Shown: one piece after another, positions 2,552-5,876 of the stretch | How positions within the stretch are numbered: position 1 is the first letter of the stretch | How the letters are laid out: each line of letters opens with the position of its first letter | NCBI GenBank assembly: GCA_029858565.1 | Contig: JAOUEV010000081.1 | Span: 1-12,508, forward strand | Direction: 5' to 3' | DNA from: Nitrospirota bacterium | GTDB lineage: Bacteria; Nitrospirota; UBA9217 | DNA: 12,508 bases | Program-made: the position numbers and the translations under genes | Notes under the pieces: model-generated | Told to the model about the DNA's origin: nothing | Database searches by the model: none | The model's input: only the letters and a program-made list of their open reading frames with translations

Positions 2552-3415
2552 ATGATTGGACGGATCGTAAAGGCAGGACTGGTCACACTGGTCGTTGTTG
2601 CGTCACTGGGATGGTCACGGCCGGAGACCGCGGCTGCTGAGATCAAGCTTGGACTGCTTCCCCGGCTGAGCGCGATGGAAATGACCGCCATGTTCACTCC
2701 GCTGGCGGAATACCTGAGCAAGGAAACAGGCGAAAAGGTCAGCTTGATTGTCCCGAAGGACTTCGACGCTTTTAAGGCGCTCGTCTCCTCCGGCCATGTT
2801 GATATGGGATTTGCCAATCCGCTCATCTATGTGCAGCTGAAAAAGGACGACCCGTCGCTCGATCCGCTCGGGTTGGCGTCGGAAAAATCGGGAACCAAGT
2901 TCCGGGGCATCATCATCATCCGGAAGGACTCGGGCATAGAAAAGGTGCAGGACCTGAAAGGGAAGAAGATCATATTCGTGGAGCAGGACTCCGCTGCGGG
3001 TCATATCTTCCAGATGCTGACCCTGAGCAAGGCCGGCCTTGACGTGAAGAACGATTTCACCAAGCTGCCCTTTGCCAAGAAGCATTCGAACGTCGCCATG
3101 GCGGTGTTCAACAAGGCGGCTGATGCCGGCGGCATTCGCGAGGATGACCTCGAAAAGATGAAAGATGTGGTGGACCTTGCGCAGATCAAAGTCGTTGCCT
3201 ACACGGACTATTATCCGAACTGGCCGCTGTTCAGCACGAAAAAGATGAGCAAGGCGAGCGCTGACAAAGTGAAGGCAGCGCTGCTGAAGCTCAAGCCGAA
3301 CAGCCCCGAGGCGAAGCAGGCAGCCGGTCCGGCCAAGATCACGGGATTTGCGCCGGTCGTTGACAAGGACTATGACCTGCTCCGTCAGGCGGCCAAGATC
3401 GCAGGCGCATATTAG
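2552..3415 (+). CDS. PhnD/PtxB-family (phosphate/phosphite/phosphonate-type) periplasmic substrate-binding protein, with no adjacent transporter genes
   Basis: SD AGGAGG at 2539-2544 before ATG 2552. Sec-type signal peptide ending ETAAA/EIK. Family hallmarks: [73 protein letters not shown]. Confidence 0.88.
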
Positions 3416-3433
3416 GAAGACGCATCGAAGTGC

Positions 3434-3458
3434 GCGGGGACGGCGTCGCTGTTCCCGT
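3434..3458 (+). other. Intergenic RNA hairpin without a U-tract between the binding-protein gene and the MCP gene
   Basis: GCGGGGACGGC-GTC-GCTGTTCCCGT forms an 11-bp stem with three G-U pairs, beginning 19 nt after the stop codon. Confidence 0.45.
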
Positions 3459-3563
3459 AACCTGCCGCCTCGCAGAGCATGCGCAGTGAACGGGAAGTCC
3501 GTCAGCGTCCGGCAGGACATCGGCAGCATCGGATACAACGGAATATCGAGCAGGGGGGGCATT

Positions 3564-5291
3564 ATGAAGATCAATATTCGGGAGTGGTCAGTGACCAAAC
3601 AGTTTCTAGCCAGCATCATGCTGGTAATGCTGCTGGTGACAATTGCCATGGTGTGGATATTGAGCGCCAGCCAGCAAAGGGCATTGATGCGGCAGTTGGA
3701 GGAGAAAGGGAAGAACACGGCATCGTTCCTGGCGGCCATATCCGCCGAACCGATACTCTCCTATAATTTCGGATACCTGGAGAACTATGTAAAGGACATC
3801 TCGAACGATCGCGAGGTGGTGTCCGCGGTCGTGCTGGACAAGCAGGGCGCCCCGCTCACCCAGCATGGCAACGGCCAAAGCGGTGTGAAAAAAGTGATGG
3901 AATTCACCAGCCCGATCCTGCAGAACGGCGAACAAATCGGCATGGTGAAGCTCGGTTTCACCCGGCAGTATGTTGACGAGGCCATTCGGAGCGCCCAGGC
4001 AATCATTGTGGCGCTGTTTGTCGCAACCATGATCGTGCTTTCCGGCGTTGTGTACCTGCTGTTCCGGAAGATCATCCTCGCCCCGCTGGGAGCCGAGCCC
4101 GTTTTTGTCGCAGGTATTGCGAACCAGGTTGCTGAAGGCAATCTGAGCATCAGCCTGCAGACAGCTGCAGACGACCGGAGCAGCGTTCTCTTCTCCATGA
4201 AAAAGATGGTCGATAATCTGAAAGGGCATGCCGGTGTTGCGGAGCAGATCGCGGCGGGAGACCTGCGGGTCAATGCCACGGTGCTCGGCAGTCAGGATAT
4301 TCTGGGCAAGTCCCTGACCGCGATGATCGAAAAGCTGAGGTCTGTCGTAGCTGACGTGATGATCGCGTCGGACAATGTCGCTTCGGGCAGCCAGCAGATC
4401 TCGTCGAGCGCCTCGCAGCTCTCTGAAGGGACAACCAATCAGGCGGCATCCGCGGAAGAGGCATCATCGTCCGTGGAAGAGATGAATGCCACGATCCGGC
4501 AGAACGCTGATAATGCCGAGCAGACGGAAAAGATCGCCAAGAAGAGCTCCAATGACGCGATCGAAAGCGGTAAGGCCGTGGGAGAAGCTGTGGGCGCCAT
4601 GAAGAACATCGCTTCCCGGATCACGATCATCGAAGAGATCGCGCGTCAGACGAACCTGCTTGCATTGAACGCGGCCATCGAGGCTGCACGCGCGGGCGAG
4701 CACGGAAAAGGATTCGCCGTGGTCGCCGCGGAAGTGCGCAAGCTGGCGGAGCGGAGCCAGGTGGCTGCAGGAGAGATCAGTCACCTCTCGAACTCGAGCG
4801 TGGACGTTGCCGAGAGCGCCGGCGCGATGCTGGCGAAGCTGGTCCCGGACATCCAGAAGACCGCTGACCTGGTGCAGGAGATCAGCGCCGCGTCGAAGGA
4901 ACAGGCGGGCGGCGCCGACCAGATCAACAGCTCGATCCAGCAGCTGAACAGCGTGGTCCAGATGAACGCGGGGGCGGCGGAGGAGATGGCCTCAACGGCG
5001 GAGGAACTTTCCGCCCAGGCAGCGCATTTGCAGCGCTCTATCTCCTTCTTTACCGTGGAAGATGCGGAGGAAGAGGCGCCTCGATTGGCGGCAGCGCCTG
5101 TGAAGAAGATCCCCGCGCGTCCTGCAAAATTGCCGGCGCCGTTCCCTGACCGGAAACGGGAAAAGGTCCTGGTTGCGGCGGGAGCGAAGGTCAGTGGCGG
5201 CGTGGAAATCAATTTGGGTCCTGACGCCGGCGGCAACGGGACGCGTGAAAAAGGCAATGATTCCAGGGACCACGATTTCGAGAAATTCTGA
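3564..5291 (+). CDS. Methyl-accepting chemotaxis protein (2 TM, small periplasmic domain, tandem HAMP, C-terminal pentapeptide)
   Basis: Start at ATG 3564 after a G-rich SD (AGGGGGGG). TM1 [22 protein letters not shown]2 [21 protein letters not shown], two HAMP-like repeats ([22 protein letters not shown]), signalling tip [40 protein letters not shown], Pro/Ala/Lys-rich linker, terminal DFEKF. Confidence 0.96.
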
Positions 5292-5381
5292 ACAGGGCCG
5301 GGAGCTGGATCGGATAACAAGTCGCTGCAGAAGGCGCATTGCGATTACGAGCATTCCTGGCGGTATTCGAAGGAGAAGCCC

Positions 5382-5876
5382 ATGAGCATGGCAGAAGCGA
5401 CGGAGATGACGCAATACCTTACGTTCAGCCTGGGCGACGAGCTGTTCGCCCTGGATATTGCAAAGGTCCGCGAGGTCCTTGATTACACGACCGTCACCAG
5501 GGTCCCCCGCATGCCCGCATATATGCTGGGGGTGATCAACCTGCGGGGCACGGTCGTTCCGGTCGTTGACCTCCGGAGCAAGTTCGGCACTGATGTTAGG
5601 GGCAATTCGGTGAACACGTGCATCATCATCTCGGAGGTCCTGGTCGATGGAAAGATCACGGTGCTAGGCGCGCTGGCTGACTCGGTGCAGGAGGTGGTGG
5701 ACCTTGATCTCGAGAACATCGCGCCGGCTCCCCGCATCGGCTCGAGGCTTAATACGGATTTCATCAAGGGCATAGGCAGGCAGAATGACCGGTTCATTGT
5801 CATGCTCGACATTGACCGGGTTTTTTCAGCGGGAGATCTGGACACGGTTACGGACAGGCCGGGAGTGCCGGTATAA
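5382..5876 (+). CDS. cheW: Chemotaxis coupling protein CheW
   Basis: QYLTFSLGDELFALDIAKVREVL, TRVPRMPAYMLGVINLRGTVVPVVDLR, GALADSVQEVV, FIKGIG, LDIDRVFS. SD AGGAG at 5371-5375. Confidence 0.96.
   Translation: MSMAEATEMTQYLTFSLGDELFALDIAKVREVLDYTTVTRVPRMPAYMLGVINLRGTVVPVVDLRSKFGTDVRGNSVNTCIIISEVLVDGKITVLGALADSVQEVVDLDLENIAPAPRIGSRLNTDFIKGIGRQNDRFIVMLDIDRVFSAGDLDTVTDRPGVPV

Follow-up and report, generated by a model that had tools for sequence, protein, structure and literature searches.

A PhnD-like binding protein encoded with a chemoreceptor and CheW in Nitrospirota: a candidate transporter-independent chemosensory input module

Binding proteins that signal to membrane transducers

ABC importers that take up phosphonate, phosphite, and hypophosphite use PhnD, PtxB, and HtxB as their substrate-binding proteins (SBPs). 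The PhnD-like fold serves sensing rather than transport in TtrS and ThsS, where it is fused to a kinase and has no chemotaxis output. Work in E. coli has confirmed that Shewanella ThsS and TtrS sense thiosulfate and tetrathionate, and the same source counts 838 kinases with PhnD-like sensor domains in UniProtKB (PMC5408782). AioX, a member of the Phosphonate-bd family (PF12974), passes its signal to AioS, for which an sCache-like sensor domain is listed. Like ArxX and ArrX, it is a stand-alone periplasmic protein encoded beside a transducer and not a transporter, and the AioX-AioS-AioR system is linked to sigma54 (PMC8050422 Table 1; PMC5908839).

Periplasmic SBPs also present ligands to chemoreceptors, as in PstS-CtpL of P. 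aeruginosa, for which the ligand is an inorganic oxyanion, and in MBP-Tar, DppA-Tap, RBP/GBP-Trg, and LsrB-Tsr (PMC8050422 Table 1). The genes of these SBPs sit with ABC transporters and their products also serve uptake, while their receptors use TarH or HBM four-helix bundles. According to a 2021 review, the SBPs so far known to serve bacterial chemoreceptors have genes that lie mainly next to those of transporters (PMC8050422). Dedicated pairs are described in Halobacterium salinarum, where the SBP genes of BasB-BasT and CosB-CosT adjoin their transducer genes and are grouped with signalling genes, not with a transporter (PMC8050422 Table 1).

The locus described here, from a Nitrospirota genome, encodes an exported PhnD-like SBP, a chemoreceptor (MCP), and a CheW coupling protein within a 12,508-nt stretch of DNA, referred to as the window. 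It probably constitutes a three-gene, transporter-independent chemosensory input module, in which the SBP senses the ligand and docks on the MCP and the output passes through CheW and CheA. As in AioX/ArxX/ArrX systems, a stand-alone PF12974 protein adjoins a transducer with a small sCache-like domain; unlike in AioX-AioS-AioR, the output is an MCP and CheW, and the histidine kinase and sigma54-dependent regulator typical of that subfamily are not its partners. The locus also has the arrangement of BasB-BasT and CosB-CosT, with conserved adjacency and no transporter genes nearby, but those pairs are archaeal, use Peripla_BP_6 and OpuAC proteins and dCache-like transducer domains, and respond to amino acids and compatible solutes. 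In contrast to PstS- and MBP-type pairs, the SBP gene lies beside the receptor gene, no transporter partner was found, and both the SBP family and the receptor domain differ.

The closest precedents are AioX-AioS, which shares the SBP family but ends in a kinase, and two archaeal pairs, BasB-BasT and CosB-CosT. An earlier note on this DNA had been aware of no characterised cassette of this kind; the design itself does have precedents in these three systems (PMC8050422 Table 1). In the literature searched, which covered few subscription journals, no description was found of a chemoreceptor partnered by a PhnD/Phosphonate-bd SBP, or of SBP-kinase adjacency in Desulfovibrio.

Layout of the locus and its upstream region

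The three genes lie on the + strand in the order SBP, MCP, and cheW, as the earlier note had read them. The SBP gene (2552..3415) starts at an ATG with AGGAGG 8 nt upstream and encodes 287 aa. A 148-nt spacer (3416..3563, +) separates it from the 575-aa MCP gene (3564..5291; MCPsignal E 3.5e-34, 118.6 bits against a cut-off of 34.6), which is followed by the gene of the 164-aa CheW (5382..5876; PF01584 E 7.6e-36, 123.2 bits against a cut-off of 23.5). A TTG start at 3348 in the listed MCP reading frame was discarded in favour of 3564 because the MKINIREW region is where the alignment of all 15 orthologues begins.

A scan of the window predicted no intrinsic terminator separating the three genes, and the sole terminator-like site on the + strand before the end of cheW falls within cheW itself. 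The spacer contains no terminator-like site, its RNA fold is not special (z-score -0.53), and no Rfam families were found anywhere in the window. Its length varies from 19 to 253 nt across orthologous metagenome loci, and a CheW gene comes after the MCP gene in many orthologous genome and metagenome loci. On contig C51, a 155-aa ORF between the SBP and CheW genes is probably not a separate gene, as it matches only the C-terminal regions of MCP genes.

The SBP gene had been placed first after a sigma54 promoter. A sigma54-like -24/-12 element (TGGTAT-N5-ATGCA; TGGTATTGATCATGCA) does lie at 2439..2454 (+), 113 nt before the SBP ATG, and the pattern TGGYAYN6TGCW occurs at two positions in the window, where 0.13 matches were expected. 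In L023, the closest relative, a matching site lies 112 nt upstream of the SBP gene, and this was the only match in the 26 SBP loci checked, with the site absent from the other 25. The upstream site therefore stands, but with a counterpart in a single one of these 26 loci its role as the SBP promoter is plausible rather than established.

The second match in the window, a near-consensus sigma54-like site (1158-1173), precedes the neighbouring gene for a REC-HD-GYP response regulator (1187..2302, +; probable start near 1244). The start of the contig truncates the first gene of the window, the L023 orthologue of which has at least 769 aa. In L023 the same order of histidine kinase then HD-GYP gene is found, with a CheA gene between the HD-GYP gene and the SBP gene. 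The upstream histidine kinase and REC-HD-GYP protein were considered as partners of the SBP and dropped, because the L023 kinase orthologue shows only PAS, HisKA, and HATPase domains, although roughly its first 155 residues match no assigned domain.

The binding protein and the outer domain of the receptor

The SBP matches the Phosphonate-bd profile (PF12974) over 242/242 positions (E 2.7e-62, 210.7 bits against a cut-off of 27) and shares fold and family with PhnD, PtxB, and HtxB. It scores above the cut-off of the ABC-SBP subfamily TIGR01098 (152.2 against 112.05 bits) but below that of the PhnD equivalog TIGR03431 (138 against 261.1 bits), which sets it apart from PhnD proper. PtxB is its best solved match (1.3e-28 over ~255 aligned residues), with further matches to ArrX (3.6e-14), AioX (8.1e-12), and PhnD (9.1e-8); the closest solved relatives include cyanobacterial PhnD-type proteins, and the TtrS model matches the SBP at 1.2e-14. 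Read by eye, residues 1-29 resemble a signal peptide, with R4, K7, a hydrophobic stretch, and an AAA/E junction, and the N-terminus carries no lipobox Cys.

The conserved pocket residues of AioX are given as Y88, C106, Y131, S161, S163, H192, and D210 (PMC5908839). In the window SBP these appear to correspond to F71, N89, F117, S147, A149, H178, and R196, so that two of seven are kept, on a mapping drawn through ArrX and PtxB alignments and residue spacing rather than a direct AioX alignment. Phe71 and Phe117 align with tyrosines in PtxB and ArrX. Judged by its sequence, the pocket probably differs from those of AioX, ArrX, and PtxB, and the protein as a whole is nearer to PtxB than to AioX. 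Among 16 SBP orthologues F71, N89, S147, and R196 are invariant and F117 and H178 nearly so, a pattern expected of a maintained, if different, pocket. The ligand had previously been proposed to be an oxyanion; with two of the seven AioX residues kept on this indirect mapping, that assignment is not established.

In the MCP, hydropathy peaks place TM1 at residues 15-33 and TM2 at 147-165, bracketing a periplasmic stretch of ~113 aa (residues 34-146; 3663..4001, +). An AF2 model of this outer domain (mean pLDDT 76.7) has two helices and four strands, with ~8 residues joining strands 2 and 3 and no helical insert. The domain carries a conserved motif, and invariant residues in the orthologue alignment include I59, P63, S66, N68, F69, and L72. 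Against sCache_3_2 (PF17203) the window domain reaches 23.3 bits, below the gathering score of 28.4, and the profile matches 8/16 outer-domain orthologues at E values up to 10, the best being 4.9e-7. Foldseek searches with the model returned the WalK extracellular domain, the CdgS9/LapD periplasmic domain (TM 0.74 on target), and CitA. The model thus suggests a minimal sCache/PDC fold closest to the domains of WalK and LapD/CdgS9. Those domains are docked on and regulated by other proteins, YycH/YycI for WalK and LapG for LapD, whereas CitA and DcuS have the same fold and bind small ligands directly. A complex prediction for the mature SBP (30-287) and one copy of MCP residues 34-147, using 16-row alignments for each, scored 0.00 against a mark of 0.32 and counts neither for nor against docking.

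Genomic context of the pair and competing readings

The 11 ORFs scanned in the window include no ABC permease or ATPase, as had been noted before. This is a weak point when confined to the window, because the window is the whole 12.5-kb contig and its first gene is truncated. The firmer result comes from the source genome, rated 100% complete, where the best PhnE match reaches 26.1 bits, the cut-off being 216.7, and none of 58 PhnC matches exceeds the cut-off of 266.1 bits; these are strict equivalog cut-offs, and an unrelated permease partner could still be encoded elsewhere in the genome. PhnE is above cut-off in 0/21 lineage genomes, while the 13 genomes of the same family have 5-18 PF12974 matches each. 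The locus thus lacks the partners that define a PhnCDE-type importer, both in the window and, at these cut-offs, genome-wide.

The source genome holds 13 PF12974 domains above cut-off, in 12 genes. Nine of the ten stand-alone PhnD-like genes abut a membrane transducer, namely five histidine kinases, two MCPs, one GGDEF-EAL protein, and one sCache_3_2-HAMP-PAS protein. The two fused genes join the domain to a histidine kinase (on C103) and to a PAS-PAS sensor protein truncated by a contig end (on C57). The outer domain of the window MCP is also found in a third MCP of this genome (C135:67056-68651), one with a rhodanese gene on each side and no adjoining SBP, which indicates that the domain can occur with no SBP gene beside it. 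Two paralogues have a generic ABC ATPase nearby, of the ABC-F type in L018 and SufC-like in L019, in neither case with a permease.

The neighbourhood survey covered 25 genome and 79 metagenome loci with an SBP of at least 55% identity, and downstream counts were limited to the 21 genome and 68 metagenome loci with at least 300 nt of downstream sequence, requiring an MCP start within 400 nt. An MCP with a homologous outer domain lies directly downstream in 14/21 genome and 43/68 metagenome loci. These include Nitrospirota and, from a different phylum, three Anaeromyxobacter-group loci in which the SBP is 57-62% and the outer domain 34-36% identical. Anaeromyxobacter oryzae and A. oryzisoli (L042 and L045) are culturable carriers. 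Two further genome loci and two further metagenome loci have an MCP of another type in this position. The homologous outer domain is not directly downstream in 7/21 genome and 25/68 metagenome loci, and some SBP genes have no adjoining chemotaxis gene, with MFS, VWA, tRNA_edit, or NTPase neighbours instead. No ABC permease or ATPase was found in any of the 25 genome or 79 metagenome loci (71 + 46 = 117 neighbour ORFs scanned), so close homologues do not sit mainly in phnCDE-type operons, the outcome that the earlier note had named as refuting its view. The SBP and outer-domain pair also recurs with different MCP signalling classes. In five loci (L030, L039, L047, L070, and L108) an SBP of 66-75% identity and an outer domain of 41-44% identity are retained alongside a signalling domain of another class, which scores 57-67 bits compared with >220 bits in most other loci with a full-length MCP.

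This context supports the earlier suggestion that the protein serves sensing rather than uptake, given the maintained pairing and the lack of PhnE and PhnC above cut-off. The SBP is most likely a detachable ligand sensor of the adjoining MCP, because there is no matching transporter, the outer domain of the MCP is minimal, and the pairing is kept in dozens of related bacteria. The PhnD-like protein would be exported to the periplasm, where it would hold a ligand, small and probably anionic, between its two lobes. The closed, liganded form may then dock on the small sCache/PDC-like domain of the MCP, which, coupled via the co-encoded CheW, would modulate one of the six CheA kinases in the genome. 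We infer that the SBP binds a ligand and docks on the MCP, that the genes are transcribed together from the sigma54-like site, and that a behavioural output follows. In favour of the sensing module count the lack of a cognate transporter, the paralogue context, the conserved pairing, its modularity, the small outer domain, and the AioX precedent. Against it count the unpaired loci, the C135 MCP without an SBP, direct binding by CitA and DcuS, the greater similarity of the SBP to PtxB than to AioX, and the ATPases in L018 and L019.

The unpaired metagenome loci (25/68) and the C135 receptor would fit a different arrangement, in which the sCache-like domain binds its own ligand, as sCache/PDC domains such as that of CitA, one of the fold matches, are able to do. 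The SBP would then be merely co-located or co-regulated with the MCP, for instance acting as a buffer or scavenger or supplying some other carrier. This is unlikely, as the outer domain is unusually small and has no helix inserted between its second and third strands, the pair stays together across signalling-domain swaps and phyla, and 9/10 stand-alone paralogues adjoin transducers. A quite improbable reading is that the SBP both signals to the MCP and supplies an importer, ABC-type or other, whose genes lie elsewhere, in the manner of MBP, DppA, and PstS. Such dual use agrees with the transport function of its closest solved relatives (PtxB and the cyanobacterial PhnD-type proteins), with the TIGR01098 score, and with the transporter linkage of most known bacterial chemoreceptor SBPs (PMC8050422). 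It is opposed by the missing PhnE and PhnC in the genome at the cut-offs used, the result of 0/21 for PhnE across the lineage, and the 117 orthologue neighbour ORFs without a permease or ABC ATPase.

The resemblance of the outer domain to protein-regulated domains, together with changes at 5/7 AioX pocket positions on the indirect mapping (residues as listed in PMC5908839), could also indicate that the SBP no longer binds small molecules and instead regulates the receptor constitutively from the periplasm, a role resembling that of YycH/YycI towards WalK or of LapG towards LapD. This is very improbable given that the changed positions are invariant or nearly so in 16 orthologues and that the family fold is otherwise intact over all 242 profile positions. 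The preferred reading remains that of a ligand-sensing SBP dedicated to the adjoining MCP.

A broader proposal, possible but doubtful, is that the entire PhnD-like family left transport in this lineage and became a portable sensor, consisting of an SBP and a minimal sCache dock, for chemoreceptors, kinases, and c-di-GMP enzymes, with the window orthogroup reporting a sulfur compound such as thiosulfate. The sulfur compound is suggested by two observations only, an exported rhodanese encoded after cheW in L023 and a 64%-identical orthologue of it beside the third outer-domain MCP of the source genome. When three rhodanese queries were run by tblastn against the window and L013-L132, matches were confined to their own source loci, L023 and L052, which is too thin for naming a ligand. 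If this proposal were true, sulfate-reducing Nitrospirota and Anaeromyxobacter would gain a form of taxis in which a binding protein guides them to an electron acceptor.

In the gene pair, found at 57 or more loci across two phyla, an SBP family known chiefly from phosphonate and phosphite transport appears as a dedicated chemoreceptor partner, which would extend the three-component idea of AioX-AioS from kinases to chemotaxis. A suggested annotation rule is that a PhnD-like gene beside a small-sCache transducer, in a genome without PhnE, be named a sensor and not an 'ABC transporter substrate-binding protein'. With a mean column identity of 75% across its orthogroup, the highly conserved SBP also offers a defined target for ligand screens in a group that is uncultured and abundant in the environment.

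Gene order and the binding protein

The PhnD-like binding protein (SBP; 2552-3415), the chemoreceptor (MCP; 3564-5291) and CheW (5382-5876) are the third, fourth and fifth genes on the + strand, in the order that the earlier note had described. The first gene on this strand (3-1055) is for a PAS-HisKA-HATPase kinase of which the C-terminal 350 aa are present. Its orthologue in the reference locus L023 has at least 769 aa and three PAS domains, hence the contig start cuts the window's gene, with loss of its 5' part. The second gene, also on the + strand, encodes a REC-HD-GYP response regulator whose true start is probably an ATG near 1244 (MISKILLVDD) rather than the listed GTG at 1187. 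On the 3' side of cheW a geranylgeranyl-reductase-like gene in convergent orientation and a gene of the glyoxalase family come first, followed by V-type ATPase genes. A domain scan detected no ABC ATPase or permease domain in any window ORF, as the earlier note had stated.

The sigma54 pattern matches twice across the window against 0.13 expected, at 2439-2454 upstream of the SBP and at 1158-1173, where a near-consensus -24/-12 element (TGGCACGACACTTGCT) shortly precedes the REC-HD-GYP gene. Of the 26 other SBP loci checked, only L023 carries a matching site at nearly equal distance from the SBP, and the window holds no gene for an enhancer-binding protein. The window is an entire contig (C59, 12,508 bp) of a 3.9-Mb genome whose completeness is rated at 100% and contamination at 0.5%. 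This genome carries six genes for CheA and some two dozen for MCPs, so the window MCP and CheW must act on a kinase whose gene lies outside the window. In L023 the HD-GYP and SBP genes are separated by one for CheA.

The SBP matches the whole Phosphonate-bd profile (E 2.7e-62) and clears the TIGR01098 subfamily cut-off, and it misses the PhnD equivalog cut-off (138 vs 261 bits). Its N-terminus, read by eye, looks like a Sec signal peptide. Solved relatives include PtxB (1.3e-28), cyanobacterial PhnD-type proteins, ArrX (3.6e-14), HtxB, AioX (8.1e-12) and E. coli PhnD (9.1e-8). The AioX pocket residues named in PMC5908839 were placed on the SBP by way of its alignments with ArrX and PtxB and from residue spacing; this indirect, inferred mapping gives F71, N89, F117, S147, A149, H178 and R196, so that of the AioX residues just two, the first Ser and the single His, are retained. 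Among 16 SBP orthologues F71, N89, S147 and R196 do not vary and F117 and H178 hardly do, and the pocket therefore looks maintained yet unlike that of AioX.

The receptor outer domain

Hydropathy of the window MCP peaks at residues 15-33 and 147-165, leaving ~113 residues between them as a small periplasmic outer domain. In an alignment of 16 orthologous MCP N-terminal regions the mean identity is 56%, and one stretch of 18 residues is strongly conserved. Pfam returns only sCache_3_2 matches below threshold, in 8 of the 16. An AlphaFold2 model (mean pLDDT 76.7) predicts a long helix running on from TM1, then a short helix, and four strands ahead of TM2, with strands 2 and 3 joined by a short, low-confidence link. 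Foldseek places this predicted fold among extracytoplasmic PAS/PDC domains, the top matches being the extracellular domain of WalK and, from the LapD orthologue CdgS9, the periplasmic output domain (TM 0.74 on target, rmsd 2.8 Å), with CitA ranking after both. The WalK domain is under the control of the partner proteins YycH/YycI and the LapD domain under that of LapG, while citrate is a direct ligand of CitA.

Orthologous loci and the inherited pair

Reference genomes, scanned at one per species, yielded 29 loci, four of them distant and 25 with an SBP identity of 57-85%, from Nitrospirota and, in three cases, the Anaeromyxobacter group. A homologous MCP outer domain lies directly 3' of the SBP in 14 of the 21 loci (of these 25) with at least 300 nt downstream, and a CZB-type MCP is directly downstream in two further loci (L034, L035). 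Of the remaining five loci, L037 has a CbiA/ParA-like gene after the SBP and a REC gene 5' of it, L033 an oppositely oriented MFS gene and L040 a tRNA_edit gene; no neighbour was assignable in L043, and L038 is described below. Several reference loci are full chemotaxis clusters, with CheA upstream in L023, L030, L031 and L047, and with CheR and CheB (L030), CheR (L031) or CheR and CheA (L034) downstream.

In L038 a fusion gene begins ~830 nt 3' of the SBP. Its uninterrupted 954-aa frame (L038:7685-10546, +) combines an MCP (Mcp40H-20 sensor with a CFSCH motif, HAMP, MCPsignal) with a PhnD-like domain at the C-terminal end (residues 701-938). No hydrophobic segment is seen by eye between the two, which would place this PhnD-like domain in the cytoplasm. 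Five relatives (G004, G007, G008, G014, G017) also have open frames, 937-974 aa long, with a PF12974 match.

Of 79 metagenome loci retained (SBP identity 55-86%), 68 extend for at least 300 nt past the SBP, and in 43 of these an outer-domain homologue lies within 400 nt 3' of it. The other 25 hold 62 neighbour ORFs, of which 46 were compared with Pfam and 16, short or antisense, were left out. An MCP of another type is directly downstream in L111 and L124, and truncated CHASE3-HAMP (L091) and sCache_3_2 (L132) proteins lie near the SBP. CheR or HEAT genes occur 3' (L093, L097, L112, L113, L118), single-domain REC genes 5' (L093, L112, L114, L127) and CheW upstream (L097, L106); one NTPase and one MFS gene are also present. 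In a subgroup with 55-65% identity (L102, L104, L121, L122, L125, L127) a large protein with VWA and hemicentin-like domains, encoded convergently on the opposite strand just 3' of the SBP, replaces the MCP. Pfam identified it in five of these loci; L122 is placed with them by its ORF layout, identical to that of L121.

A second, unrelated binding-protein gene lies beside the PhnD-like one in L034 (Peripla_BP_6, 4807-5982), L106 (PBP_like_2, 1821-2831) and L132 (ABC_sub_bind, 2940-3899), and thus one chemotaxis cluster may be fed by several binding proteins.

Identity to the window is 55-86% for the SBP and 30-82% for the outer domain across 59 such pairs, two of them from this genome, and the SBP is the better conserved in every pair; these loci are related to one another and the counts are not independent events. 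In five loci (L030, L039, L047, L070, L108) the pair comes with a different class of signalling domain, the C-terminal part of the window MCP scoring 57-67 bits there vs >220 in most other full-length-MCP loci. Because the pair is kept while the signalling-domain class differs, sequence comparison marks SBP and outer domain as the inherited unit. Other observations point the opposite way. The outer domain does not adjoin the SBP in about a third of orthologous loci, and this genome has a third MCP with such an outer domain (C135:67056-68651, on another contig; 142 bits to the domain profile) but no SBP beside it. This MCP lies between two rhodanese genes (L052:6080-9495 = C135:66079-69494) whose products have N-termini resembling signal peptides. 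The downstream rhodanese is 64% identical to one 3' of cheW in L023, a likeness that gives a thin hint of sulfur chemistry.

Paralogues, transporters and a probable role in sensing

PF12974 exceeds its cut-off in 13 domains of 12 genes in this genome, and 109 ORFs around the paralogues were compared with Pfam. A membrane transducer adjoins nine of the ten stand-alone PhnD-like genes. The SBP is followed by a HAMP kinase on C14, by PAS, HAMP-PAS and PAS-PAS hybrid kinases on C135, C17 and C88, by a HAMP-PAS-GGDEF-EAL protein on C113 and by an sCache_3_2-HAMP-PAS protein on C134. On C59, the window, it precedes MCP and CheW, and on C51 the order is MCP, SBP, CheW. C138 carries a tandem double-PhnD protein followed by an sCache_3_2-HAMP kinase, and a second SBP gene followed by an IS200 transposase and the contig end. 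In the two remaining genes the PhnD-like domain is part of a fusion, with a histidine kinase on C103 and, on C57, with a PAS-PAS sensor protein that the end of the contig truncates.

The tandem protein has 557 aa (L017:5980-7650, -) and lies directly 5' of its histidine kinase (L017:4352-6001, -); two-domain frames of 538-591 aa also occur in G004, G006, G008, G009, G010, G011 and G012. The C14 kinase (L013:6814-8256) and the C113 GGDEF-EAL protein (L016:6832-9324) have ~150-aa periplasmic stretches with CxxCH motifs (CVGCH, CTNCH), which points to heme-c sensor domains that would work with a binding protein.

Near the paralogues only two genes encode ABC ATPase domains. One, for an ABC-F type protein, is 4 kb distant and on the opposite strand (L018); the other is SufC-like and sits beside SufBD (L019). 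Neither is accompanied by a permease. No PhnE match in this genome exceeds 26 bits (cut-off 216.7), none of 58 PhnC matches reaches its cut-off and PhnE passes in none of 21 genomes (this one and 20 relatives), these being strict equivalog thresholds that leave room for a partner from another permease family. The 13 genomes of the same family have 5-18 PF12974 matches each. Nor do close homologues of the SBP sit mainly in phnCDE-type operons, the arrangement named earlier as speaking against sensing, as no ABC ATPase or permease was found in the 71 ORFs scanned at reference loci or the 46 Pfam-scanned ORFs of the 25 metagenome loci. The proposal that the SBP serves sensing rather than uptake is the best-supported reading and a reasonably probable one, drawn from gene context.

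Related designs have been described. In Table 1 of PMC8050422 AioX (PF12974) acts on AioS, whose sensor domain is sCache-like; the same paper associates the archaeal BasB-BasT and CosB-CosT pairs with signalling genes and has SBPs that act on chemoreceptors primarily encoded near transporter genes. AioX, ArxX and ArrX form a sensing sub-family among PhnD-like proteins (PMC5908839), and 838 kinases carry fused PhnD-like domains (PMC5408782). Searches of full-text literature largely outside subscription journals turned up no Phosphonate-bd/PhnD-like SBP paired with a chemoreceptor. The SBP-MCP-CheW module is a variant of an already known design, not a new kind of system.
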